From Eledone cirrhosa (lineage: Eukaryota), in assembly GCA_964016885.1 (NCBI GenBank), contig OZ024747.1, forward strand, positions 18,972,001 to 19,036,000: a stretch of 64,000 nt of DNA, given 5' to 3'. Position numbers and translations under genes: made by a program. Shown piece after piece: positions 11,301 to 61,600 of this stretch; positions within the stretch are counted from its first letter, which is position 1, and each line of letters starts with the position of its first letter. The notes beneath the pieces were generated by a model, which was given only the letters and a program-made list of their open reading frames with translations, was not told the origin of the DNA and ran no database searches.

Positions 11301-11344
11301 GTATATAGTATAGACAGAAGTAATGGCAGTGGCAATCCCTGCCA

Positions 11345-14213
11345 GTCTGAGGTGGTATATAGTTTACAGTATAGACAGAAGTAATGGCAGTGGCTTGTCC
11401 CAATAAAAAGCAATGCAGAACAACAATCCATGGCTGTCTCTGAGGTGGTATATAGTTTACAGTATAGACAGAAGTAATGGCAGTGGCTTGTCCCAATAAA
11501 AAGCAATGCAGAACAACAATCCATGGCTGTCTCTGAGGTGGTATATAGTTTATAGTATAGACAGAAGTAATGGCAGTGGCTTGTCCCAATAAAAAGCAAT
11601 GCAGAACAACAATCCATGGCTGTCTCTGAGGTGGTATATAGTTTATAGTATAGACAGAAGTAATGGCAGTGGCTTGTCCCAATAAAAAGCAATGCAGAAC
11701 AACAATCCATGGCTGTCTCTGAGGTGGTATATAGTTTATAGTATAGACAGAAGTAATGGCAGTGGCTTGTCCCAAGAAAAAGCAATGCAGAACAACAATC
11801 CATGGTTATCTCTGAGGTAGTATATAGTTTACAGTATAGACAGAAGTAATGGCAGTGGCTTGTCCCAATAAAAAGCAATGCAGAACAACAATCCATGGCT
11901 GTCTCTGAGGTGGTATATAGTTTATAGTATAGACAGAAGTAATGGCAGTGGCTTGCCCCAATAAAAAGCAATGCAGAACAACAATCCATGGCTGTCTCTG
12001 AGGTGGTATATAGTTTACAGTATAGACAGAAGTAATGGCAGTGACTTGTCCCAATAAAAAGCAATGCAGAACAACAATCCATCGCTGTCTCTGAGGTGGT
12101 ACAGTATATAGTTTATAGTATAGACAGAAGTAATGGCAGTGGCTTGTCCCAATAAAAAGCAATGCAGAACAACAATCCATGGCTGTCTCTGAGGTGGTAT
12201 ATAGTTTATAGTATAGACAGAAGTAATGGCAGTGGCTTGCCCCAATAAAAAGCAATGCAGAACAACAATCCATGGCTGTCTCTGAGGTGGTATATAGTTT
12301 ACAGTATAGACAGAAGTAATGGCAGTGACTTGTCCCAATAAAAAGCAATGCAGAACAACAATCCATAGCTGTCTCTGAGGTGGTACAGTATATAGTTTAT
12401 AGTATAGACAGAAGTAATGGCAGTGGCTTGTCCCAATAAAAAGCAATGCAGAACAACAATCCATGGCTGTCTCTGAGGTGGTATATAGTTTATAGTATAG
12501 ACAGAAGTAATGGCAGTGGCTTGCCCCAATAAAAAGCAATGCAGAACAACAATCCATGGCTGTCTCTGAGGTGGTATATAGTTTACAGTATAGACAGAAG
12601 TAATGGCAGTGACTTGTCCCAATAAAAAGCAATGCAGAACAACAATCCATGGCTGTCTCTGAGGTGGTACAGTATATAGTTTATAGTATAGACAGAAGTA
12701 ATGGCAGTGGCTTGTCCCAATAAAAAGCAATGCAGAACAACAATCCATGGCTGTCTCTGAGGTGGTATATAGTTTACAGTATAGACAGAAGTAATGGCAG
12801 TGGCTTGTCCCAATAAAAAGCAATGCAGAACAACAATCCATGGTTGTCTCTGAGGTGGTACAGTATATAGTTTACAGTATAGACAGAAGTAATGGCAGTG
12901 ACTTGTCCCAATAAAAAGCAATGCAGAACAACAATCCATGGTTGTCTCTGAGGTGGTACAGTATATAGTTTACAGTATAGACAGAAGTAATGGCAGTGGC
13001 TTGTCCCAATAAAAAGCAATGCAGAACAACAATCCATGGCTGTCTCTGAGGTGGTATATAGTTTACAGTATAGACAGAAGTAATGGCAGTGGCGTGTCCC
13101 AATAAAAAGCAATGCAGAACAACAATCCATGGCTGTCTCTGAGGTGGTACAGTATATAGTTTATAGTATAGACAGAAGTAATGGCAGTGGCTTGTCCCAA
13201 TAAAAAGCAATGCAGAACAACAATCCATGGCTGTCTCTGAGGTGGTATATAGTTTACAGTATAGACAGAAGTAATGGCAGTGGCGTGTCCCAATAAAAAG
13301 CAATGCAGAGCAACAATCCATGGCTGTCTCTGAGGTGGTATATAGTTTATAGTATAGACAGAAGTAATGGCAGTGGCTTGTCCCAATAAAAAGCAATGCA
13401 GAACAACAATCCATGGCTGTCTCTGAGGTGGTATATAGTTTATAGTATAGACAGAAGTAATGGAAGTGGCTTGTCCCAATAAAAAGCAAGGCAGAACAAC
13501 AATCCATGGCTGTCTCTGAGGTGGTATATAGTTTATAGTATAGACAGAAGTAATGGAAGTGGCTTGTCCCAATAAAAAGCAATGCAGAACAACAATCCAT
13601 GGTTGTCTCTGAGGTGGTATATAGTTTACAGTATAGACAGAAGTAATGGCAGTGGCTTGTCCCAATAAAAAGCAATGCAGAACAACAATCCATGGCTGTC
13701 TCTGAGGTGGTATATAGTTTATAGTATAGACAGAAGTAATGGCAGTGACTTGTCCCAATAAAAAGCAATGCAGAACAACAATCCATGGTTGTCTCTGAGG
13801 TGGTATATAGTTTACAGTATAGACAGAAGTAATGGCAGTGACTTGTCCCAATAAAAAGCAATGCAGAACAACAATCCATGGCTGTCTCTGAGGTGGTATA
13901 TAGTTTACAGTATAGACAGAAGTAATGGCAGTGACTTGTCCCAATAAAAAGCAATGCAGAACAACAATCCATGGTTGTCTCTGAGGTGGTATATAGTTTA
14001 CAGTATAGACAGAAGTAATGGCAGTGACTTGTCCCAATAAAAAGCAATGCAGAACAACAATCCATGGCTGTCTCTGAGGTGGTATATAGTTTACAGTATA
14101 GACAGAAGTAATGGCAGTGGCTTGTCCCAATAAAAAGCAATGCAGAACAACAATCCATGGTTGTCTCTGAGGTGGTATATAGTTTATAGTATAGACAGAA
14201 GTAATGGCAGTGG
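11345..14213. repeat. 93-bp minisatellite (~30 copies; some 98-bp variants with a cagta insertion)
   Basis: Unit gaggtggtatatagttta(c/t)agtatagacagaagtaatggcagtggcttgtcccaataaaaagcaatgcagaacaacaatccatggctgtctct; 31-aa periodicity in the ORF track. Confidence 0.97.
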
Positions 14214-14401
14214 CAAACCATAAAGATGGTATGGAATGTTTAGTTATTGGTTGAAACCTAATTTAATTTAATCAACTCAATGTACACAAATATCACATTT
14301 GACTGTTGAAGAATGCATTTATTCCCCAACTGGGAAGTCTATGACATATTGAAATAATTTATTTACACTACAAAATTCTCGAGTGGATTATTAATATAGC
14401 A

Positions 14402-27297: not shown

Positions 27298-28115
27298 TAG
27301 ATATCACAGTAAACTTATGACGTACCCACTAGTAATACAAAAGACTGCTATATTCCACACATATCATAGAACACTTATGACGTACCCACTAGTAATACAA
27401 AAGACTGCTATATTCCACACATATCACAGTAAACTTATGACGTACCCACTAGTAATACAAAAGACTGCTATATTCCACACATATCATAGAACACTTATGA
27501 CGTACCCACTAGTAATACAAAAGATTGCTATATTCCACACATAAAAAAACTTATGACATACCCACTAGTGATACAACAAAGACTGCTATATTCCACACAT
27601 ATCATAGAAAACTTATGACGTAGCCACTAGTAATACAAAAAAGACTGCTATATTCCACACATATCATAGAACACTTATGACGTACCCACTAGTAATACAA
27701 AAGATTGCTATATTCCACACATAAAAAAACTTATGACATACCCACTAGTGATACAACAAAGACTGCTATATTCCACACATATCATAGAAAACTTATGACG
27801 TAGCCACTAGTAATACAAAAAAGACTGCTATATTCCACACATATCATAGAACACTTATGACGTACCCACTAGTAATACAAAAGATTGCTATATTCCACAC
27901 ATAAAAAAACTTATGACATACCCACTAGTGATACAACAAAGACTGCTATATTCCACACATATCATAGAAAACTTATGACATACCCACTAGTAATACAAAA
28001 AAGACTGCTATATTCCACACATATCATAGAAAACTTATGACGTACCCACTAGTAATACAAAAAACATTGTTATATTCTACACATATCACAGAAAACTTAT
28101 GACATACCCACTAGA
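27298..28115. repeat. ~60-bp minisatellite (~13 copies) with a 180-bp three-unit higher-order repeat
   Basis: Unit atatcatagaacacttatgacgtacccactagtaatacaaaagactgctatattccacac; blocks 27481-27660, 27661-27840 and 27841-28020 are near-identical. Confidence 0.95.
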
Positions 28116-28612
28116 AATCATAAACAACTGTGCTATGTCAGAAACTGTGAAACTATGAACGTGGCAGATGATCAAACTGATGGCAGACTTCTTCAGATTA
28201 ATGAAGAATGTGTCACTAAAATACCAACCTCATAAACGAAGGAAAAATATTCAGTCCATTATCTTTTGAAAGCAGTTATCTGGTTACATACAAAAAAGAC
28301 ATAGGTAGAATATATAGAATGTATAAAGGAGCCGAGAATAGATTTTAAAATATTCTAAAAACAATTATACAACTGGAATGTGCCTTATATTAAATTTAAA
28401 AAAAAATATTTTGAAATAGAATAGTTACCGCGAATAATTGTTTCTAATTTTGGCACAAGGCCAGCAATTTGGGGAAAAAGAGAAAGTCGAATATATCGAA
28501 ACCAGTATTTGACAGGTACTTAATTTCATCGGCCCAGAAATGATGATAGCCACCCATCTGTGAAACGTTCGTAACTAGGCCTAATTAATAAAAAAAAAAA
28601 ACATGAATATGT

Positions 28613-43658: not shown

Positions 43659-46600
43659 ACCCTTATTGAGCCCTCTTCGGATTTTAGTCTTCACATTTAT
43701 TATTACTATATATATATAGGAACTTCACTTCCTGTACTCACCATAGTTCTTGCATTCCGATGTCCCTTGAATTTTGTTTTTATTGATGCTTGGAACACCC
43801 TGTTCATAGCCTCTTGTTCCTCTTTGAGCCGTTCCTCTTTCTTTCGGCGGTAATATTCCTGAAGTTTTGCTTTTGCAATATTCCGTTTTGTTTCACTGCT
43901 GCTGCTACTGCTGCTACTTCTGGTGCCACCATCACTGAAATGTTACAAAAAGAAATTTCCTGTCAAAAGTTACCAACGATATCATCATCATCGTTTTTAC
44001 ATCCAATTTTTCATGCTAGAATGTGTTGGATGGGATAGTTTGAGACAATGTTTTACAGCCAGAGCCCTTCTTGACATCAACCCTTTTAGTTACCTCTTAC
44101 TACATGCAGGGATACAGTGTACCTCTTCTTAAAACTGAGATACACACAACCATACCAATAATATAACCTATTACAAAATGTAAAGTTTTTAACCATATGA
44201 CTATATGCCCATAACAAATAATTATGATAGGAGCCCCTACACAGTTGCTCAATTTTATCTTTAAAAGGAAGAGATACTTTGGATAATGTAGTAATAGATA
44301 TCCAATGCTTCAGGACAGGACAAGATGGTCATGGATTGAATGTCTTTGATCAAAGGTTTACTCAGTTATGGCTGACCTGGAGTTAACAGCCAAATCTCTC
44401 ATTATAGATCCTACAAAGACCATATCATTCCATATAGAGTGTCAACATGAAAAAATCCAAACCTTCCAATTACTACAGCTTATCTACTGATTACACAGTT
44501 ATTCCTTCTTGGAACAACATAACTATTAACTGTTTTGGTACTAAACAGCCTGAAAACACACACGATTCAATGATAGAAAAACTCTGATTTATTTATTTTT
44601 ATCTAAAAACATTCCATCATAATTTTATGTCTTTGTTAAGTTATGTTCCAAACGCCAACTTAATAATGTCTAAGTAAATTATTTTACTTAATCCTTTTAA
44701 ATTCCTGATTACTTTGATAATTATTTAAAACACATAAGCAGTATATTTCATTAGAAATTTGGTAAAGAAAAGAGTTAAGCCACTTTCTATGAGAATACAC
44801 ATTAAACTACAAGAGATAATCCACACAGTAGCAAATTACTCAAGTACCCTGTTAATCAAGTACCTGGAGTATTCATATGCCCCCAGACCTGTAGAAAGCT
44901 GGTAATAGGTCTAGGCTAAATGTAAAATGTAAGCCCCATTTCAAACTGCTCATTAAGCATTTTAGTAATTAGTGCTAAATATATATGATTTGTATGTGGG
45001 ACAAATGTATATTATTAACAACAGAACTTGAGGCAAGTAGACCAACTGAAAATCCTAGGCCCTGACCAGCTGGTTCACCTACCTCTGCCCCATCTTATCT
45101 TCTTTGGTCTGGTCATCATTAATAAAACCTCTATTGACTGATCATGTATCAATCTACTCACCATCGACTGCTACTCCCACTTTGATTTGGCCTAAGACTG
45201 ACCATGTATCAATCTACTCACCATCGACTGCTACTCCCACTTTGACTTGGCCTAAGACTGACCATGTATCAATCTACTCACCATCGACTGCTACTCCCAC
45301 TTTGATTTGGCCTAAGACTGACCATGTATCAATCTACTCACCATCGACTGCTACTCCCACTTTGACTTGGCCTAAGACTGACCATGTATCAATCTACTCA
45401 CCATCGACTGCTACTCCCACTTTGACTAAGACCGACCATGTATCAATCTACTCACCATCGACTGCTACTCCCACTTTGACTTGGCCTAAGACTGACCATG
45501 TATCAATTTACTCACCATCGACTGCTACTCCCACTTTGACTTGGCCTAAGACCGACCATGTATCAATCTACTCACCATCGACTGCTACTCCCACTTTGAC
45601 TAAGACTGACCATGTATCAATCTACTCACCATCGACTGCTACTCCCACTTTGACTTGGCCTAAGACTGACCATGTATCAATCTACTCACCATCGACTGCT
45701 ACTCCCACTTTGACTTGGCCTAAGACCGACCATGTATCAATCTACTCACCATCGACTGCTACTCCCACTTTGACTAAGACTGACCACGTATCAATCTACT
45801 CACCATCGACTGCTACTCCCACTTTGACTAAGACTGACCATGTATCAATCTACTCACCATCGACTGCTACTCCCACTTTGACTAAGACTGACCATGTATC
45901 AATCTACTCACCATCGACTGCTACTCCCACTTTGACTTGGCCTAAGACCGACCATGTATCAATCTACTCACCATCGACTGCTACTCCCACTTTGACTAAG
46001 ACTGATCATGTATCAATCTACTCACCATCGACTGCTACTCCCACTTTGACTTGGCCTAAGACTGACCATGTATCAATCTACTCACCATCGACTGCTACTC
46101 CCACTTTGACTTGGCCTAAGACTGACCATGTATCAATCTACTCACCATCGACTGCTACTCCCACTTTGACTAAGACTGACCATGTATCAATCTACTCACC
46201 ATCGACTGCTACTCCCACTTTGACTTGGCCTAAGACTGACCATGTATCAATCTACTCACCATCGACTGCTACTCCCACTTTGACTAAGACTGATCATGTA
46301 TCAATCTACTCACCATCGACTGCTACTCCCACTTTGACTTGGCCTAAGACTGACCATGTATCAATCTACTCACCATCGACTGCTACTCCCACTTTGACTT
46401 GGCCTAAGACTGACCATGTATCAATCTACTCACCATCGACTGCTACTCCCACTTTGACTTGGCCTAAGACTGACCATGTATCAATCTACTCACCATTGAC
46501 TGCTACTCCCACTTTGACTTGGCCTAAGACTGACCATGTATCAATCTACTCACCATCGACTGCTACTCCCACTTTGACTAAGACTGACCATGTATCAATC

Positions 46601-49600
46601 TACTCACCTTCGACTGCTACTCCCACTTTGACTAAAACTGACCATGTATCAATCTACTCACCATCGACTGCTACTCCCACTTTGACTAAGACTGACCATG
46701 TATCAATCTACTCACCATCGACTGCTACTCCCACTTTGACTAAGACTGACCATGTATCAATCTACTCACCATCGACTGCTACTCCCACTTTGACTAAGAC
46801 TGACCATGTATCAATCTACTCACCATCGACTGCTACTCCCACTTTGACTAAGACTGACCATGTATCAATCTACTCACCATCGACTGCTACTCCCACTTTG
46901 ACTAAAACTGACCATGTATCAATCTACTCACCATCGACTGCTACTCCCACTTTGACTAAGACTGACCATGTATCAATCTACTCACCATCGACTGCTACTC
47001 CCACTTTGACTAAGACTGACCATGTATCAATCTACTCACCATCGACTGCTACTCCCACTTTGACTAAGACTGACCATGTATCAATCTACTCACCATCGAC
47101 TGCTACTCCCACTTTGACTAAGACTGACCATGTATCAATCTACTCACCATCGACTGCTACTCCCACTTTGACTAAGACTGACCATGTATCAATCTACTCA
47201 CCATCGACTGCTACTCCCACTTTGACTAAGACTGACCATGTATCAATCTACTCACCATCGACTGCTACTCCCACTTTGACTAAGACTGACCATGTATCAA
47301 TCTACTCACCATCGACTGCTACTCCCACTTTGACTAAGACTGACCATGTATCAATCTACTCACCATCGACTGCTACTCCCACTTTGACTAAGACTGACCA
47401 TGTATCAATCTACTCACCATCGACTGCTACTCCCACTTTGACTAAGACTGACCATGTATCAATCTACTCACCATCGACTGCTACTCCCACTTTGACTAAG
47501 ACTGACCATGTATCAATCTACTCACCATCGACTGCTACTCCCACTTTGACTAAGACTGACCATGTATCAATCTACTCACCATCGACTGCTACTCCCACTT
47601 TGACTAAGACTGACCATGTATCAATCTACTCACCATCGACTGCTACTCCCACTTTGACTAAGACTGACCATGTATCAATCTACTCACCATCGACTGCTAC
47701 TCCCACTTTGACTAAGACTGACCATGTATCAATCTACTCACCATCGACTGCTACTCCCACTTTGACTAAGACTGACCATGTATCAATCTACTCACCATTG
47801 ACTGCTACTCCCACTTTGACTTGGCCTAAGACTGACCATGTATCAATCTACTCACCATCGACTGCTACTCCCACTTTGACTTGGCCTAAGACTGACCATG
47901 TATCAATCTACTCACCATCGACTGCTACTCCCACTTTGACTTGGCCTAAGACTGACCATGTATCAATCTACTCACCATTGACTGCTACTCCCACTTTGAC
48001 TTGGCCTAAGACTGACCATGTATCAATCTACTCACCATTGACTGCTACTCCCACTTTGACTAAGACTGACCATGTATCAATCTACTCACCATCGACTGCT
48101 ACTCCCACTTTGACTAAGACTGACCATGTATCAATCTACTCACCATTGACTGCTACTCCCACTTTGACTAAGACTGACCATGTATCAATCTACTCACCAT
48201 TGACTGCTACTCCCACTTTGACTTGGCCTAAGACTGACCATGTATCAATCTACTCACCATCGACTGCTACTCCCACTTTGACTAAGACTGACCATGTATC
48301 AATCTACTCACCATCGACTGCTACTCCCACTTTGACTAAGACTGACCATGTATCAATCTACTCACCATTGACTGCTACTCCCACTTTGACTTGGCCTAAG
48401 ACTGACCATGTATCAATCTACTCACCATCGACTGCTACTCCCACTTTGACTTGGCCTAAGACTGACCATGTATCAATCTACTCACCATTGACTGCTACTC
48501 CCACTTTGACTTGGCCTAAGACTGACCATGTATCAATCTACTCACCATCGACTGCTACTCCCACTTTGACTTGGCCTAAGACTGACCATGTATCAATCTA
48601 CTCACCATCGACTGCTACTCCCACTTTGACTTGGCCTAAGACTGACCATGTATCAATCTACTCACCATCGACTGCTACTCCCACTTTGACTTGGCCTAAG
48701 ACTGACCATGTATCAATCTACTCACCATCGACTGCTACTCCCACTTTGACTTGGCCTAAGACTGACCATGTATCAATCTACTCACCATCGACTGCTACTC
48801 CCACTTTGACTTGGCCTAAGACTGACCATGTATCAATCTACTCACCATCGACTGCTACTCCCACTTTGACTTGGCCTAAGACTGACCATGTATCAATCTA
48901 CTCACCATCGACTGCTACTCCCACTTTGACTAAGACTGACCATGTATCAATCTACTCACCATCGACTGCTACTCCCACTTTGACTAAGACTGACCATGTA
49001 TCAATCTACTCACCATTGACTGCTACTCCCACTTTGACTTGGCCTAAGACTGACCATGTATCAATCTACTCACCATTGACTGCTACTCCCACTTTGACTT
49101 GGCCTAAGACTGACCATGTATCAATCTACTCACCATTGACTGCTACTCCCACTTTGACTAAGACTGACCATGTATCAATCTACTCACCATCGACTGCTAC
49201 TCCCACTTTGACTAAGACTGACCATGTATCAATCTACTCACCATTGACTGCTACTCCCACTTTGACTTGGCCTAAGACTGACCATGTATCAATCTACTCA
49301 CCATCGACTGCTACTCCCACTTTGACTAAGACTGACCATGTATCAATCTACTCACCATCGACTGCTACTCCCACTTTGACTAAGACTGACCATGTATCAA
49401 TCTACTCACCATTGACTGCTACTCCCACTTTGACTTGGCCTAAGACTGACCATGTATCAATCTACTCACCATCGACTGCTACTCCCACTTTGACTTGGCC
49501 TAAGACTGACCATGTATCAATCTACTCACCATTGACTGCTACTCCCACTTTGACTTGGCCTAAGACTGACCATGTATCAATCTACTCACCATCGACTGCT

Positions 49601-52600
49601 ACTCCCACTTTGACTAAGACTGACCATGTATCAATCTACTCACCATCGACTGCTACTCCCACTTTGACTAAGACTGACCATGTATCAATCTACTCACCAT
49701 CGACTGCTACTCCCACTTTGACTAAGACTGACCATGTATCAATCTACTCACCATCGACTGCTACTCCCACTTTGACTAAGACTGACCATGTATCAATCTA
49801 CTCACCATCGACTGCTACTCCCACTTTGACTAAGACTGACCATGTATCAATCTACTCACCATCGACTGCTACTCCCACTTTGACTAAGACTGACCATGTA
49901 TCAATCTACTCACCATCGACTGCTACTCCCACTTTGACTAAGACTGACCATGTATCAATCTACTCACCATCGACTGCTACTCCCACTTTGACTAAGACTG
50001 ACCATGTATCAATCTACTCACCATCGACTGCTACTCCCACTTTGACTAAGACTGACCATGTATCAATCTACTCACCATCGACTGCTACTCCCACTTTGAC
50101 TAAGACTGACCATGTATCAATCTACTCACCATTGACTGCTACTCCCACTTTGACTTGGCCTAAGACTGACCATGTATCAATCTACTCACCATCGACTGCT
50201 ACTCCCACTTTGACTTGGCCTAAGACTGACCATGTATCAATCTACTCACCATCGACTGCTACTCCCACTTTGACTTGGCCTAAGACTGACCATGTATCAA
50301 TCTACTCACCATTGACTGCTACTCCCACTTTGACTTGGCCTAAGACTGACCATGTATCAATCTACTCACCATTGACTGCTACTCCCACTTTGACTAAGAC
50401 TGACCATGTATCAATCTACTCACCATCGACTGCTACTCCCACTTTGACTAAGACTGACCATGTATCAATCTACTCACCATTGACTGCTACTCCCACTTTG
50501 ACTAAGACTGACCATGTATCAATCTACTCACCATTGACTGCTACTCCCACTTTGACTTGGCCTAAGACTGACCATGTATCAATCTACTCACCATCGACTG
50601 CTACTCCCACTTTGACTAAGACTGACCATGTATCAATCTACTCACCATCGACTGCTACTCCCACTTTGACTAAGACTGACCATGTATCAATCTACTCACC
50701 ATTGACTGCTACTCCCACTTTGACTTGGCCTAAGACTGACCATGTATCAATCTACTCACCATCGACTGCTACTCCCACTTTGACTTGGCCTAAGACTGAC
50801 CATGTATCAATCTACTCACCATTGACTGCTACTCCCACTTTGACTTGGCCTAAGACTGACCATGTATCAATCTACTCACCATCGACTGCTACTCCCACTT
50901 TGACTTGGCCTAAGACTGACCATGTATCAATCTACTCACCATTGACTGGTACTCCCACTTTGACTTGGCCTAAGACTGACCATGTATCAATCTACTCACC
51001 ATCGACTGCTACTCCCACTTTGACTTGGCCTAAGACTGACCATGTATCAATCTACTCACCATCGACTGCTACTCCCACTTTGACTTGGCCTAAGACTGAC
51101 CATGTATCAATCTACTCACCATCGACTGCTACTCCCACTTTGACTTGGCCTAAGACTGACCATGTATCAATCTACTCACCATCGACTGCTACTCCCACTT
51201 TGACTTGGCCTAAGACTGACCATGTATCAATCTACTCACCATCGACTGCTACTCCCACTTTGACTTGGCCTAAGACTGACCATGTATCAATCTACTCACC
51301 ATCGACTGCTACTCCCACTTTGACTAAGACTGACCATGTATCAATCTACTCACCATCGACTGCTACTCCCACTTTGACTAAGACTGACCATGTATCAATC
51401 TACTCACCATTGACTGCTACTCCCACTTTGACTTGGCCTAAGACTGACCATGTATCAATCTACTCACCATTGACTGCTACTCCCACTTTGACTTGGCCTA
51501 AGACTGACCATGTATCAATCTACTCACCATTGACTGCTACTCCCACTTTGACTAAGACTGACCATGTATCAATCTACTCACCATCGACTGCTACTCCCAC
51601 TTTGACTAAGACTGACCATGTATCAATCTACTCACCATTGACTGCTACTCCCACTTTGACTTGGCCTAAGACTGACCATGTATCAATCTACTCACCATCG
51701 ACTGCTACTCCCACTTTGACTAAGACTGACCATGTATCAATCTACTCACCATCGACTGCTACTCCCACTTTGACTAAGACTGACCATGTATCAATCTACT
51801 CACCATTGACTGCTACTCCCACTTTGACTTGGCCTAAGACTGACCATGTATCAATCTACTCACCATCGACTGCTACTCCCACTTTGACTTGGCCTAAGAC
51901 TGACCATGTATCAATCTACTCACCATTGACTGCTACTCCCACTTTGACTTGGCCTAAGACTGACCATGTATCAATCTACTCACCATCGACTGCTACTCCC
52001 ACTTTGACTTGGCCTAAGACTGACCATGTATCAATCTACTCACCATTGACTGGTACTCCCACTTTGACTTGGCCTAAGACTGACCATGTATCAATCTACT
52101 CACCATCGACTGCTACTCCCACTTTGACTTGGCCTAAGACTGACCATGTATCAATCTACTCACCATCGACTGCTACTCCCACTTTGACTTGGCCTAAGAC
52201 TGACCATGTATCAATCTACTCACCATCGACTGCTACTCCCACTTTGACTTGGCCTAAGACTGACCATGTATCAATCTACTCACCATCGACTGCTACTCCC
52301 ACTTTGACTAAGACTGACCATGTATCAATCTACTCACCATCGACTGCTACTCCCACTTTGACTTGGCCTAAGACTGACCATGTATCAATCTACTCACCAT
52401 CGACTGCTACTCCCACTTTGACTAAGACTGACCATGTATCAATCTACTCACCATCGACTGCTACTCCCACTTTGACTAAGACTGACCATGTATCAATCTA
52501 CTCACCATCGACTGCTACTCCCACTTTGACTAAGACTGACCATGTATCAATCTACTCACCATCGACTGCTACTCCCACTTTGACTAAGACTGACCATGTA

Positions 52601-55600
52601 TCAATCTACTCACCATCGACTGCTACTCCCACTTTGACTAAGACTGACCATGTATCAATCTACTCACCATCGACTGCTACTCCCACTTTGACTTGGCCTA
52701 AGACTGACCATGTATCAATCTACTCACCATTGACTGCTACTCCCACTTTGACTTGGCCTAAGACTGACCATGTATCAATCTACTCACCATCGACTGCTAC
52801 TCCCACTTTGACTTGGCCTAAGACTGACCATGTATCAATCTACTCACCATCGACTGCTACTCCCACTTTGACTTGGCCTAAGACTGACCATGTATCAATC
52901 TACTCACCATCGACTGCTACTCCCACTTTGACTTGGCCTAAGACCGACCATGTATCAATCTACTCACCATCGACTGCTACTCCCACTTTGACTTGGCCTA
53001 AGACTGACCATGTATCAATCTACTCACCATCGACTGCTACTCCCACTTTGACTTGGCCTAAGACTGACCATGTATCAATCTACTCACCATCGACTGCTAC
53101 TCCCACTTTGACTAAGACTGACCATGTATCAATCTACTCACCATCGACTGCTACTCCCACTTTGACTAAGACTGACCATGTATCAATCTACTCACCATCG
53201 ACTGCTACTCCCACTTTGACTAAGACTGACCATGTATCAATCTACTCACCATCGACTGCTACTCCCACTTTGACTTGGCCTAAGACCGACCATGTATCAA
53301 TCTACTCACCATTGACTGCTACTCCTACTTTGACTAAGGCTGACCATGTATCAATCTACTCACCATCGACTGCTACTCCCACTTTGACTTGGCCTAAGAC
53401 TGACCATGTATCAATCTACTCACCATCGACTGTTACTCCCACTTTGACTAAGACTGACCATGTATCAATCTACTCACCATCGACTGCTACTCCCACTTTG
53501 ACTTGGCCTAAGACTGACCATGTATCAATCTACTCACCATCGACTGCTACTCCCACTTTGACTTGGCCTAAGACTGACCATGTATCAATCTACTCACCAT
53601 CGACTGCTACTCCCACTTTGACTAAGACTGACCATGTATCAATCTACTCACCATCGACTGCTACTCCCACTTTGACTTGGCCTAAGACTGACCATGTATC
53701 AATCTACTCACCATTGACTGCTACTCCCACTTTGACTTGGCCTAAGACTGACCATGTATCAATCTACTCACCATCGACTGCTACTCCCACTTTGACTTGG
53801 CCTAAGACTGACCATGTATCAATCTACTCACCATCGACTGCTACTCCCACTTTGACTTGGCCTAAGACTGACCATGTATCAATCTACTCACCATCGACTG
53901 CTACTCCCACTTTGACTTGGCCTAAACACTGACTCTTCCTCACTGCTTTCTTCTTCATTGGTAATATTTCCAGTTGAAGTAGTTGCAATGGGGAAGGTTC
54001 TTGAACTTGCACAGGCTTGATCTATAAATAGCAGACATTAAAACATCAGACTAACAAAAAACAATATAATATTAAAAAAAAAAAAAAACTTTTATTCCAT
54101 GAAAGCAAGTAATCCTCCTCATCCTCCAATATAGATGATGACTATTATTACTACTACAATGAGTTCCACTGAAAGGGATAATGTATGTATTGACCTATGA
54201 CTCCTGATGGAGTTGTAGGGGTGCAATCGTAACATACTTAAAAGTCTCTTGGGTACTTTAAATCTGACACAGCCAATCCCCTCTCCATGTCTGAATACAG
54301 CCAATTTCTTCCAGAGAAGAAGGGAGAGTGAAAGAGAAAGAGACAAAGTGAGAAAGAGATAGAGAAGAAGAATCAACCTCAGTACCAAACTGGTACTTTT
54401 TTTACCAAATTCAAAAAAATTAAAAGCAAAGTTGATCTGAGCTTTCCTGTTATTTTTATGCATAAAAATGATTGTATTACCTTTCTACTTTTTCTTGAAA
54501 ATAAGTCTACTGGAATGTATCCCTATTTAACATCAAAGTCAACGAAAAGATCTGTTTTATGTTACAGAATTTTGATGTCCAATGGCATTTTCAATGCTTC
54601 TTGATATTCAGAGATAACTTGTAGCTAGCTATATAACAACAACATCAGCAACAACCATAGGTTGGATCACTAGATTTATGGATAACAGCAAGTGATTCAA
54701 TTAACTACCTACTTTATGCAGCCAGAAATAACCATGGTCTCACATATCCAATATAACTCATGTATCCATGTAGCTAATAAGTGAAATGAATGCAACCCAA
54801 TGAAAAGGAATCAGCATAAGTTACAGTGATGTCATGACATAGAAAGAACATTTACTTTACCTGCATCGTTATTGCTGGTGGAAAGTCTCATGTGGTGGTC
54901 TTTAGAATCAGAGTCAATAGAGACAAGCATGCCTTCATGGTGATCTTTAGAATCAGAAGAGACAAGCATGCCTTCATTATTACAAACAGGGTTTTGAGAA
55001 GCCAGTAGGTCACTGGAGCTAACATCAGATTTCTCCAGCTGACCAAGTTCACTACAAGAGCTCTTGCTTTCGTTTACTTCTGTTTCACTTCTGTACAGCG
55101 AAGAACAGCAGCCCTCCTCACTTGCGAGAGGGACTTGTTCTGCTGTTTCCTTAATATCACAGTCATCAATGTCTTCAGTCTTTGCCTCACAACTGCTGGA
55201 TAAAGATGGTGCTGGAGGGTCACTGTCAGTAACAATTTGAGATTGGTTACAAAAATGCGATGAAAGACTTGCAGGATATTCTTGGTTCACTGAAGACACA
55301 GTGCTCGACTCTTTTGTACAACTAGGTTTTTCAATTTCCATTGAAGTGGAAGCTGAGTTTTCAGAGGTGGTCATACCTAGCTGGCCAGGCATGGTTGAAG
55401 TGTTCAGTTGGCTTAAAGATGCATTCTCAGCACTCCTTTCAAGAATGCCAGCTTCCAGGTTTTCAAAAGCAGCAAATCCAACGCGAATAGTGCTACTCGA
55501 AGTCCCTTCAGTCTCATAATGAAGGCTTATCACAGGTTCTATACGAACTGGTTGAAGATAGGATTGGAGTGGAGAAAGGGAGGTGCTAGATGATTCTATT

Positions 55601-58600
55601 GAAGAAACAGACATCTGTGCTGTTGTCGAATGAGTGGTGGTGGTGGCTGTGGTGGTAGGGGTAATGGTTTTAGAAGTGGTAGAGCTATTGGCAGGAGTGA
55701 TGATGGTGGTAGAAGTGGTAGTAGTTGAATTTGAGGTGGTAGCACTGGTTGTGGTGAAGGTGGAGTTTGTAGTCTGGGTGGAAGGGGAAGGCAAAGAAAC
55801 TGAAGAAGAAAAAAAGCTAGATAAATTAGATATAGATAAAGAAGAAATAGAAGGATGATCCTTACGGCCTGTGTGTGGCTGTTGTTTATCAGAAGATTTT
55901 AAAGAAGTTTGTAATGTGTTTGAAAGATCTAATAAATTTTCTTTCTGTTTATCAGTTTCAATAGTTACAGTATCATTAGTTAAAACATCATCTGATTTTA
56001 CAGCTTTTTCACTCTCTGATACTGATAGACTACTATCACTAGAATTCTGTAAATCTCTGAAATTATTTTCAGAAGCTACTTCTGGCTGGTTTTCTTTTTT
56101 CAACAAGCCCCACAGCCGATTCTTGGAATCCTTATTGCTGTCATTAGTGCTGATTAAAGACGGTTTGGAGGGTAATGTCGGGGCTGGAGGGCATACAGAA
56201 AACTGATCACTTGCTTTTGAGGTAGGTGGGTAACAACAGTCCTTAGAATTGTTAGCTTTCAGGCAGACAGAATCTTGCAAAGTGCTTTCATCCACTCCTG
56301 GAGGGTTTCTGGGTATTAAAGATGTCTCTTTAATATCAGAAGCATCAGATATGGCAGTAGTGGTACCAGAAACTGCCGAGGGACTCTCCGACTGGAAAGG
56401 CTTTATGTTATCCCTCAGTGCTTGCATCACTTCTGCTGGCACCTGGCTGAGATCACCTTCAACAAGAGAAGCCGCAGCAGGGGACCCCTCAGAAGTCATG
56501 CCTCTCTGACCTTCTGCAGGAGTGTCAGATGAAGTGGATACTGTTGATGCCGAAGCTGACGCAGATGATGTTGATGCTGCTGCTGTTGTTGCAGATGCTA
56601 CTGCTGCTGCTGCTGCTAACATTTCACCCCCAGATTCAGTAGGATTATTAGATGAATCCCCTTCAATCAAACCACTGGCAGGCTGATCATTTTCATTGTT
56701 GTTCCTGAGACTTCCATCCAACCATCTAGTTAACATATCTGACATTCTCTGCATTATGGTTGTACGAGGACTCTGTTGACCTAAAACAGAACATTATTTC
56801 AGTTTAATCAAACTTGATTTACAATATCATTATATAATCTTAGATTTTTAGACATTTAATAAATTGAAAATGTTAAATAACTTGTTTAGAAATTTGTACA
56901 TAAAGAGTTATTAATCCGTGCGTTATCATACATCTAATTAAATACACTTTCTGGGGGATTCACTAAAATTATGTCACTACACCATCAGGAGGTATGGGTC
57001 AATACATACAAAGTATTGAAATATTAAGTTGACCATGGCAAGCTTTGAACTCAGTACGGTGAAAAACTCAGATTCCAGTTCAAGGATATTGTAAAACATC
57101 TTTGATTGGAAGAAAGCAGATTGGAACTTGTACTGCACTGAGCTACAGCACCCAAACTGGCATGAGATGTATAACTCTGGAGATGTGAACACTATACTCC
57201 AGAGCATCCTGGACTCAATATAGATAGCGTGTGCAGCATCGGTGCCACGTAAGCAGAAAAAAAACCACCCCAAAAGTGCAATTTGGGAAACTTCGTGGTC
57301 CGACTTGCCAGGAAAGAATGTTGGAACGCTGAACGGGAATATAAACTGCATAAATCAGATGCCAACAGAAAAAAGCGGAATAAATCTTCTAACCATCTCA
57401 AGCAAGTGACAAAGAAGGCAGTGATTGAATTTGAACAGTGCATAGCAACCAATCCTGACAGTAAGGTGTTCTGGAAATATGTTCATTCAAAGTAGAGACC
57501 TCACTCTCCAGTTGGTCCTCTTCGCAATCCCCACACAAGCCAGATCACTGACAATCCCAAACAATGCGCAGAACTCATTGCTGAGTGCTATGCAAGTATT
57601 TTTACTGTTGAAAACCAGAATGTACCATCTCCACCATCTCTAATATCAAATTCATAACAACTATGGAATTTACACCTGCAATGTTGCGACGTCACCTTAA
57701 GAATAAGCGCAACTATGCCTCCCCTGGTCTTGATGGTGTTACATACCTGCTTCTCAAACGTGGCGGGTATTTCCTTTTGCGCCAGCTTTCTTTCTTCTTT
57801 CAATACTGTCTCAACAATGGTGCTACTCCGGAGCAGTGGAAAACTGCCAGTGTCATTCCCCTGTTCAAAAAGGGCAACCGCATGTCACCTGTCAACTATC
57901 GTCCAGTCAGTCTTACTAGCTGTATGGCCAAACTGATGGAATCCTGTGTCAGAGAAACACTTTGGAACTTCTGGAGCTCTCACAGCCTCATCCAGCCCTC
58001 ACAGTTTGGATTTATCCCTAACTCCAGCTGCTGTGATCAGCTTATCGAGTTCCTTGAAGACATCACCCGGATCACTGACAGCGGCTCATGGGTGGATGTT
58101 GTTTACCTTGACTTTGCTAAGGCTTTTAATTCTGTGCCACACAAAAGACTTATGGCAAAACTCTCTGCAATGGGTGTGAGGGATGATCTTTTCGACTGGT
58201 TGAAATCCTTCATTCTCAGCCGAAAAGAGGTAGTCACGGTTCTAGGACAGCATTCTTTACCATATGAGATGTCATCTGGTGTACCACAGGGATCTGTTCT
58301 TGGTCCCCTTTTGTTTGTGGCATATATTAATGACATAGATGCCAACTTACAGAATGCCACGGTACTGAAATATGCAGATGACATCAAGCTGTACCTTGAA
58401 ATCAAAAGGACTGATCCTGAAATCTACAACTCTTTCCTACAATCATACCTGGACACAATGCAGCAATGGATCACAGACTGGCAACTGAAGCTGGCTGTGG
58501 ACAAGTGTACCACCATGCATTTTGGGAGGAAAAATCCAGCGTCCACATACTCCCTCCACAACACTAATATCAAGAAGTCCTCTTGTGAACGTGACCTGGG

Positions 58601-61600
58601 TATTACTGTCAGCAGCGATTTGTGTTGGACAAAGCATGTCTCTAAGATTGTCAAGAAGGCCGAGGGTGTCTTGGCATCACTCAGCAAGACATTTGTTAGC
58701 CGCTCTCCAGCCATCTATTTAAAACTGTATACAGCTATGGTACGACCACACTTGGAATTCGCATCATCAGTCTGGAACCCCTATCTTGCTCAGAACATTG
58801 ACCTCCTGGAAACTGTTCAGAGACGTGCAACCAAGTGCATACCCTCCATCAGACACCTACCATACTCTGAACGCCTTGCTTCCCTGGGCATGAATTCATT
58901 GAAGCTCCGACGTCTGGCAATGGACTTGGTAAGTACCCACAAAGTTATTAACCATCTCGCCAATTGCAACCCTGAGCACCTTTTTGATCTCCATGTGTCT
59001 AACACACGTGGACATGCCTACAAAATCAGAAAACAGCACAGCTCCCATGACTTTCGTAAACATTTTTTCACGCTCAGAGTTGCTGAAGCATGGAACAAAC
59101 TGCCTGTGTCAGTTGTTAGCTGCCGAGACACTGCATCCTTTAAGACACTCATGCTTCCCGAAATACGCCAAAACTACACCTGATGTACCCCTTCCATACA
59201 CATGCACACGTGTGTATCATGACTCATGCACTGCTCATTTTCCTGATGTTTGTACATTACCCTATGTACTATACATACACTTTTTGATGAGTTGTAGTGC
59301 ACCTGAGCACTGTACACAATATTTCATTATTATTATTATATTATCTTGAACAAGAGTTGTCTCCGATGACTTCAATGTCTTTTAATGAAATTTAGTAGAC
59401 AGAAATTGTATTTTAGCCTACCAGAGAGATAGTTCTTGTTCTTGTGTGGTAAATGTAATTTGTTGCAAGCAACTGGACCGAGTCTTTAGTCTGATGATAA
59501 CATCTTTTCCTCCCAACTTAGAGGCTATGAAAATATTCCTGGAGTTTTATCCTAACCCACTACCCCTACTCCACCCTCCCACTTCCATCCACACCACCCT
59601 TTCTCTGCAAAGGTATCTTGGTACCACAAAACATCCAATCCACACTAACGACAAAAAACACCCAGTCCACGCTGTAAAGTGGTCGTGTAGGAGACACGGT
59701 AAAAAGGCTCCCAGTACACACTGTAAATATGGTTGGTGTTAGGAAGGACATCCAGCTGTAGAAAACCTGCCAGATACGAGCGAGACACGATCACCCGACC
59801 AATCTTGCCTCAAGTGGAACAATTCCCATCTAACCCATGCTAGCGTGGAAGATAGACGTATGATTATGATGATTTTCTGACTAACCCTTTAAACAAAATA
59901 TTAAATACTGTAATAGGCCGCAAGATATGTGAATGCCATAGAATGCCAGATATATGACTGCCATAACACCCCTGATCTGTGACTAACATAGGAATCCCAC
60001 ATTTGTGACATTTCAAACTAGATACTGCAATGTCATAAAAATTTCATAAATTTGGTAACAAAAGGGTTAAAAAAAAAGAAAAATTGATGTGGGGGGGAAA
60101 ATGTGATTGGTTGATTAGTTACCTTCTCCAGTTTGCCGTTCTCTCTCTGGCCTTGCATTTGGCCCAGTGTCTGACCAATCACCACGAAGACGTAACCTCT
60201 TAATGGGAGGCTGTCTGTTGCCACTGTCACAGGAAAGACCCTCAGACATCAAACAAGTACTTCTACCTTCCTCACCCTGCAAAAGAAGTGTTAAGAAATT
60301 AGTATTATTTTGTTGTTTTTCCTAATTGACATATATTTAGAAAGATTCTAATAGTCAATAATCCATTCATCAAGAAGACCTTTCCTTTCTTTCATTACAA
60401 ATCCTCCATTGTCAGGGCATTAAACTCTGTAGACTTTTTCAATTCCATTGAAAATCATGAAAATCAATAACTTCTAATATATATGAGAATTACAATCAAT
60501 TTTGATAGTGCAGCCTAATAATAATAATATTCTAAGTTCCTTGTTGAGATTTGGTGACAGTAGAAGATCCAGTAATTATCATGTTTATTGTGCAAGGCAT
60601 CAAATAATAACAAATTTCTTTATTAATCATAAGGGCTTGTATATAGAATACAGTAAACATCATAAACATGGGATTTACATACATGAGAGGCTGGACAGAA
60701 TTTCTCTCATGTGAAAAACTTACCCTAGTCTTGAATAAATAAATGTATTCGGAGGAATAACTAACTAACATCTCCTTGCCATCAGGACTGTAACAGAGAG
60801 ATGTGATGCGATAGTTTCGGTTTTTCAGTGTAGAAGCTGAGAATCTACAGGTTAACCCTGTGGTAAACTTGTTTGTGTAATTTCCTGAAAAAAGAAAAAA
60901 ATGGAAGAAGAGTTCAGCTGAGGAAGCTAAAGGTACGATGACAGGCAAAGAGTGAAATACTATCATATTTTGATTTTGTATTTGTTTTGCAAGGTTCTTA
61001 ATGTGAAATTGTGTGTTGAAACTGATAGTTATATCTTGATAGTCATTATGTCAATAAAAACACAATAAGAATTCAAAGTACTGTAGCCAAATTTGCACTT
61101 GGATCATTTGTTTATTATTGAGTGGCCATGTAGAGGATCACTTATTGACTTTTATGTATGTAATATATGCATATATATATATATATATATATAAGGGTTT
61201 TTGTTTTGTTTTTTGGATGGAGGGCTATTTAGCCCTAGGTCAGCTCTGACCTGATAGACTTATGATCAAAGATGTGACAGCTGTGAGCACCTCATCTTTT
61301 TATCAGTATATCAAGGACTACATTCAACAACTTACTTTTTTAAAAACAATAGGATGTGATTTGAGGAAGAGTTGGTTGCTATTTCTAGCAGGTTGAGTGA
61401 CAGTGTAACATATCTGATCTAGTAAACCTACCTAAGATATTCAATATTTGTTGGTGATTACAAATAGCCAATAGGTTACAAGACTGACATTTTAACCTTT
61501 TTGATACCATATTTCTAATGAAATACGCAATCTACGTTTTATAATTAATTTTGTAAATAATCAACAATTTGAAGGAATTTAGGGAAATAGGCTGGCATTT

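Follow-up and report, generated by a model that had tools for sequence, protein, structure and literature searches.

In human F7 a 37-bp variable number tandem repeat (VNTR) in intron 7 begins with a unit that lies across the exon–intron junction, and according to Borensztajn et al. 2006 (PMC1557585) the identical pseudo-donors behind the authentic one are functional yet silent: with 5–9 copies tested in mammalian cells, the first donor of intervening sequence 7 (IVS7) alone was used and normal messenger RNA (mRNA) was made. The same text lists the minisatellites of human interferon-inducible 6-16 intron 2 (25 pseudo-sites) and human CBS intron 13 (15–20 units), in both of which two further donors are used, and those of LMNB2 and PDGF(A) intron 4, in which only the first donor is used. 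In amphioxus the ‘mirage’ minisatellites of Adh3, the globins BflGb6/9, troponin C and PGBD5 are boundary duplications, and in two papers (PMC3087553, PMC3902484) splicing is reportedly undisturbed; the accessible part of another paper, on repeats that alter splicing (PMC10078293), describes no donor-reiterating arrays. Here we describe such an element in the DCAF6 gene of the octopod Eledone cirrhosa. It lies in a 64,000-nucleotide stretch of the genome (assembly GCA_964016885.1, contig OZ024747.1, positions 18,972,001 to 19,036,000 of the forward strand), called the window below, and is a known type of junction-reiterating minisatellite, now seen in a mollusc and on a larger scale. With a probability of about 0.76 we regard it as a young, lineage-specific minisatellite that arose by chance on the DCAF6 donor and is tolerated, the first donor probably being the one that is mostly used.

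Tandem Repeats Finder calls the array at 45136-53933, with a period of 60, 154.1 copies and 95% matches. Parsed on the minus strand, which is the strand of the gene, it contains 154 donors from 53891 to 45161, one authentic and 153 copies, and the copies alone make up 8.7 kb of its 8.8 kb. The duplicated segment comprises the last 34 bases of an exon (53925-53892) and the first 26 bases of the following intron (53891-53866). The array takes up about 88% of this intron, whose length of 9957 nt would shrink to 1227 nt if the array were removed.

45136..53925, minus strand: minisatellite, made of the source segment and 153 copies, each with 34 (or 28) exon bases and 26 intron bases
53892..54021, minus strand: DCAF6 coding exon with its last 34 bases in the unit; 130 nt, phase 1 to 2, 11th of the 16 coding exons found
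53886..53891, minus strand: authentic 5' splice donor, ATG/GTGAGT (slash at the exon end)
43935..45135, minus strand: unique rest of the intron

A sequence-only reading made earlier had proposed an 8.8-kb DCAF6 junction array with about 150 tandem 5' splice sites, which the 154 parsed donors and the homologues named DCAF6 bear out. Its unit, the last 24–30 exon nt plus 30 intron nt, has to be corrected to 34 (or 28) plus 26; the TTAG of the unit, which that reading had placed in the intron, was assigned to the exon side because the intron sequence differs after the last copy (at 45135) and the match of a relative ends at 53866. Among the donor 9-mers 153 of 154 read ATG/GTGAGT and one reads AAG/GTGAGT. 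GT is kept in 153/153 copies and the full authentic 9-mer in 152/153, and the donor of the next exon (43739-43744 region, minus strand) is the identical 9-mer ATG/GTGAGT. The 153 units between donors, 78 of 60 bp and 75 of 54 bp, fall into 15 interleaved sequence types, the shorter unit missing six bases between two AG dinucleotides. Substitutions among the units amount to 0.6% per base at 11 variant sites, the units being 99.4% alike, and the array is therefore young. Searched exactly across the 2,996-Mb genome, a 27-base pattern from the unit occurs 116 times, and the window accounts for all 116 occurrences; this places the array at a single locus and rules out a dispersed element or satellite family, in both cases for the exact pattern only. 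Neither AATAAA nor ATTAAA was found within the array. The commonest variant (unit position 57, 32 copies) is a transition at the CpG of the unit, as would fit gene-body DNA methylation. Masking of the donors by RNA structure was considered and rejected: a 240-nt fold gave z = -2.15, but the centroid is nearly empty and the minimum-energy structure has a frequency of 0.0002, indicating no stable fold.

The array has the structure of the F7, CBS, 6-16, LMNB2 and mirage repeats: units some tens of bases long, repeated head to tail and starting with one that spans a real boundary, with copies that carry a donor of the authentic type. As in F7, the first unit spans the exon–intron boundary and pseudo-donors identical to the authentic donor come after it, but the DCAF6 array has 154 units instead of 5–9, with 34 or 28 exon bases per unit instead of 4, and the F7 repeat is polymorphic and its first-donor use demonstrated. 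With 6-16, CBS, LMNB2 and PDGF(A) it shares the reiterated donor; their units measure 31–100 bp and number 10–26, which makes the DCAF6 array about six times the largest of them in copy number, and the LMNB2 repeat, going by a reference title, likewise covers most of its intron. The amphioxus mirages differ in having 2–7 units (globin and PGBD5 cases), and length instability is demonstrated in amphioxus. No cephalopod report of such splice-site arrays was found in the literature searched, which lacks most subscription journals, nor, within the same limit, any work that treats DCAF6, octopus, splicing and tandem repeats together.

The host gene is a single-copy DCAF6 orthologue, as seen from the collinear, high-identity match to named DCAF6 proteins and from its WD40 regions. 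On the minus strand a single frame of 1076 codons runs through eleven exons from 63132 to 39612, 11/11 of which are preceded by AG, while 10/10 internal ends are followed by GT, and tblastn places five further exons upstream, giving 16 in total that are collinear with DCAF6 of O. vulgaris and O. bimaculoides. With exon 43934-43742 as protein query, three proteins among 128 candidates were found, the best being DCAF6-like from Octopus vulgaris, and the homologue cluster includes proteins of O. bimaculoides and Sepia pharaonis that bear the name DCAF6. Pfam finds WD40 on the DCAF6 homologue, and single exons as queries gave sub-threshold matches only. A conserved DCAF6 exon hits one locus at 100% and one paralogue at 42% in the 2,996-Mb genome, which rules out a second intact DCAF6 copy that could relieve this gene. 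The remaining exons in the window are the following, with run X4 introduced below.

63132-63019, 61894-61759, 60884-60724 and 60276-60123, minus strand: four upstream DCAF6 exons in the joined frame
54861..56780, minus strand: large upstream DCAF6 exon of 1920 nt in the joined frame, Ser/Thr-rich linker, spliced in run X4
43742..43934, minus strand: DCAF6 exon that follows the array, phase 2 to 0; in run X4 it is joined to an exon-end-type donor
42393-42237, 41254-41166, 40736-40631 and 39682-39612 (with stop), minus strand: four downstream DCAF6 exons in the joined frame, C-terminal WD40 region

The earlier reading had noted that the donor phase, 2, matches the next exon, and indeed phase 2 is found both at the end of exon 54021-53892 and at the start of exon 43934-43742. 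It was also right that extension of the exon to a later donor meets an immediate stop: extended in silico to donor 2 the exon reads ...SSSR-W-stop, that is Trp and then a stop, with five junctions still downstream. A premature stop upstream of later junctions is expected to trigger nonsense-mediated decay (NMD). Skipping of exon 54021-53892 as an escape was considered and rejected, as it shifts the frame and leads to a stop at codon 871.

For comparison with a relative we used run X5 (organism B), in which a 329-nt contig matches 53866-54038 with 11 differences in 173 bases. It contains the exon and exactly 26 intron bases, followed by 146 letters unlike the unit, and its depth is 17.7 compared with about 20–25 in other unique X5 contigs. 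Because this contig is at single-copy depth and runs on with non-unit sequence, the junction is single-copy in the relative, the outcome that the sequence-only reading had named as a check in related cephalopods. In all eight Octopus and cuttlefish proteins inspected the exon end is present once. The array thus looks lineage-specific.

The frequency of such arrays was estimated from 59 arbitrarily placed 10-kb stretches of the genome (L026-L084), counting arrays with minimum values of 500 bp in length, 20 in period, 8 in copy number and 85% in matches, after low-complexity units had been filtered out. In 16 of the 59 stretches 17 arrays were found, with periods of 33–87, eight of them at least 3 kb long, covering 13% of the bases; three of the stretches are array nearly end to end. 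From 21 array ends a density of 17.8 per Mb (bootstrap 9–27) follows, or about 53,000 arrays genome-wide, and chance alone would be expected to place 85–256 arrays across a donor, assuming 100,000–300,000 donors; 2.4–7.2 of these would fall into 1315 scanned windows of this genome. Within the DCAF6 array itself the donor 9-mer holds one of the 11 variant sites, with 1.65 expected, and so shows no excess conservation. First-donor use in the precedents, the absence of the array in the relative, the lack of excess donor conservation and arrays common enough to hit donors by chance together favour the neutral reading, and we infer both neutrality and a preference for the first donor. Of the three roles that the sequence-only reading had put forward, a neutral expansion is thus supported, and for the other two, a U1-loading platform and a copy-number-dependent NMD rheostat, positive evidence is missing. 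As a platform the array would offer many U1 sites, which would either keep the growing transcript from being cleaved too early or promote its elongation. The 154 sites do match the U1 consensus, as generally quoted, at 8/9 positions, but without the array the intron is only 1227 nt long and leaves little to protect, the array is missing in the relative, and no selection is seen on the donors, so that this role is highly improbable.

Copy number and splicing were compared with contigs of runs X1, X2, X4 and X5, each on stretches with one unit only; of eight runs listed, these four and the RAD-seq run X6 were used, and X6 had no reads on 53862-54161. X1 and X2 come from the same sample, which is perhaps the source of the assembly, and are DNA-like; X4 comes from another sample of the same study. 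None of the eight runs is recorded as RNA, and the sole reason for regarding X4 as such is that two GT-AG introns are skipped in its contigs. The depth of the repeat contig relative to unique contigs is 67–79x in X1 and 56–62x in X2, and 31-mer counts of the assembly predict 89. As depth is not equal to copy number, ratios of 56–79 show dozens of copies and not exactly 154. That the assembler inflated a short repeat could be read from ratios below the expected value and from recurring blocks: in the order of unit types a 24-unit run recurs at lag 41 and a 17-unit run at lag 42, while 200 shuffles give at most 11. We take these blocks of 41–42 units rather to point to block duplication, as by unequal exchange. 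Independently of any assembler, the depth ratios require dozens of copies in the data, the head-to-tail joint of units is present in contigs of X2 and X4, the 15 unit types are interleaved, and there is no N anywhere in the window. An artefact is therefore hardly to be expected, even if the assembly may be somewhat over-expanded or a second allele may be shorter.

Two joints in X4 bear on splicing. The first leads from 54861 to 54021, skipping 54022-54860 with GT..AG ends at a depth of 31.3, and the second leads from the exon end to 43934, also with GT..AG ends, at a depth of 39.8; neither has a counterpart in X1 or X2. The host gene therefore still yields spliced message in which exon 54021-53892 is used, as the earlier reading required, in one run that is taken to be RNA. 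The X4 junction contig has 30 unbroken exon-side bases, which fit the real exon end and 51 of the 153 copies and mismatch the other 102. Four X4 contigs account for the bin depths within 0.1, namely the exon at 31.3, the shared node at 80.0, the unit at 46.1 and the next exon at 39.8. Two unique contigs of the array-bearing intron have X4 depths of 2.8 and 3.1, and the unit depth comes to 0.5 per assembly copy. If the local depth is about 54, even intron background at 0.5 per copy explains all of the X4 array signal.

On the preferred reading of a tolerated minisatellite the spliceosome would mostly use the first donor, and the 8.7 kb of copies would leave with the intron. By analogy with F7 the authentic donor would win as the first one behind a defined exon, with its strong acceptor at 54021, a weak AG being all that precedes the copies. 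Leakage to donors 2–3 is plausible to some extent; it would give stop-containing RNA, a putative NMD target, as a cost and not a purpose. The sequence-only reading had held that competing donors normally cause exon extension, which is contradicted for tandem identical donors by the F7 study, and that the cell must select only the first donor, which is too strong in view of the two further donors used in 6-16 and CBS (PMC1557585).

A different view is that the later donors act as a dial: they would divert splicing, the extended exon would hit the stop, the RNA would be degraded and the length of the array would set the DCAF6 dose in proportion to copy number. Alternative-splicing switches coupled to NMD are recognised by an early stop upstream of later junctions, by conservation across related species and by an isoform that is regulated and rises when NMD is blocked. 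The first of these is found here in silico, with five junctions behind the stop, and the retention of GT in 153/153 copies and of the full 9-mer in 152, together with X4 node and unit depths that fit RNA running through 60-bp units, would suit such a dial. So would the two further donors of human 6-16 and CBS, and a reference title in the same source ties the CBS VNTR to lower enzyme activity (PMC1557585). However, the array is missing in the one outgroup, and the conservation expected of a regulated switch is thus absent; the precedents use only the nearest donors, so that copies 4–154 should not matter; the donors show no excess conservation; and the X4 unit depth of 0.5 per copy lies below the 2.8–3.1 of unique contigs of the same intron, so that background can explain it. 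We consider the dial unlikely.

A second use of the array would be as a reservoir of micro-exons, in which donor 1 is spliced into a distant unit and out again, adding 10 or 8 Ser/Gly-rich in-frame residues to the DCAF6 linker.

53832..53861, minus strand: the foremost in a series of 153 candidate micro-exons, each made of 30 or 24 in-frame, stop-free nt between AG and GT, with a weak acceptor

The AG is kept in 153/153 units, both 30 and 24 nt are in frame and add no stop, and the insertion point lies in a poorly conserved linker. Against this, the AG is simply an internal one of the old exon, its T fraction is 0.35 compared with 0.47–0.76 in 11/11 real acceptors, and a second AG lies within 20 bases of the candidate acceptor, as in 0/11 real ones. 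Dscam-like cassette arrays consist of diverged cassettes, each with a working acceptor and present in mRNA. Here the units (15 types, two lengths) are 99.4% alike and offer little choice, and no such joint was among the matches listed for the contigs of the runs compared. We consider micro-exons very unlikely. Taken together, the dial and the micro-exons amount to an active splicing element, in which a sizeable share of transcripts would pass via later donors into NMD or gain in-frame 8-/10-residue micro-exons, repeat number would tune DCAF6 dose or linker length, and the octopod's many such arrays would form a heritable, fast-mutating tuning layer; this wider view seems to us rather unlikely.

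The opposite strand was considered as well, since a nested gene could encode a mucin-like repeat of 2957 Thr/Ser/Pro-rich codons there.

45059..53932, plus strand: stop-free antisense frame of 2957 codons over the whole array, without methionine; both unit lengths are multiples of three, which probably accounts for it

The frame has no stop over 8.9 kb, both unit lengths preserve it, and 7/12 variant types are synonymous (P ~0.05, post hoc). Yet it has no methionine, the commonest variant (32 copies) alters the residue, 94% of shuffled 60-mers keep an open frame, and 6/17 background arrays are open over at least 60% of their length. Pfam matches are below cut-off or without a passing stretch, and the RNA signal is 0.5 per copy compared with 31–40 for the DCAF6 message. 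A coding function of this strand is accordingly most improbable.

Several points weigh against a neutral array with first-donor use. The F7 rule rests on 5–9 copies in mammalian cells and not on 154 in a mollusc, and the comparison includes one outgroup only, whose intron was followed no further than 146 letters past the breakpoint, X5 giving no cover at 45122-45221. With 11 variant sites the selection test has little power. In the base-rate estimate the donor number behind 85–256 is an assumption, the sampled arrays L031/L051 and L026/L059 share units across contigs and so belong to dispersed families, and only one array lies in the 20 stretches (200 kb) next to the window, which itself has two others. 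The X4 junction contig fits donor 1 and 51 copies alike, donors 2 and 3 included; Logan contigs omit rare forms, and contigs cannot pair an exon with a particular donor. Finally, the depth of 80.0 of the shared 34-base node (53892-53925 plus array) equals the message depth plus the unit depth of 46.1, and if the local mRNA depth is 31–40, the array signal is mostly RNA through full 60-bp units. The node and unit depths are a weak hint from one run with no error model, and might reflect leakage at early donors, a different allele or noise.

At the two ends of the array the sequence-only reading had pointed to TCAGT microhomology, and the motif is indeed shared near both breakpoints; its sites are 53932-53928 and 45141-45137, one base out of register with the repeat.

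53923..53933, minus strand: exon-side breakpoint region, TCAGT at 53932-53928, repeat begins at 53925
45131..45141, minus strand: intron-side breakpoint region, TCAGT at 45141-45137, repeat ends at 45136

In the single-copy state the two TCAGT motifs are 61 bases apart, one base off the 60-base unit; a one-base slip is therefore needed and the microhomology is imperfect, not clean. A small tandem duplication at this imperfect microhomology is the likely birth of the array. The 60-bp duplication would have come first and a 6-bp deletion would then have yielded the 54-bp unit, after which unequal exchange or slippage may have spread both unit lengths and duplicated the blocks of 41–42 units.

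A conserved single-copy gene here makes spliced message despite 153 decoy donors behind one exon, which offers a natural test of two things: whether the first-donor rule seen with 5–9 copies in F7 extends to 154 copies in a non-vertebrate, and what degree of leakage can be borne. DCAF6 is a substrate receptor of CUL4-DDB1, and the array would matter far more if its length set DCAF6 output. Since 13% of the sampled DNA is long minisatellite, splice-site arrays are to be expected by the hundred, and gene annotation of this genome must allow for them.

Two other minisatellites lie in the window. The one at 11346-14214 has a 93-bp unit in 30.5 copies with 95% matches, and about 35 unit-like bases stand just before it at 11301-11335; the one at 27301-28118 has a 62-bp unit in 13.6 copies with a higher-order period of 180 bp. 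In addition, a plus-strand frame at 57612-59183, within a 3342-nt DCAF6 intron and antisense to the gene, matches Pfam RVT_1 with an E value of 1.9e-36 and looks like the remnant of a long interspersed nuclear element (LINE).

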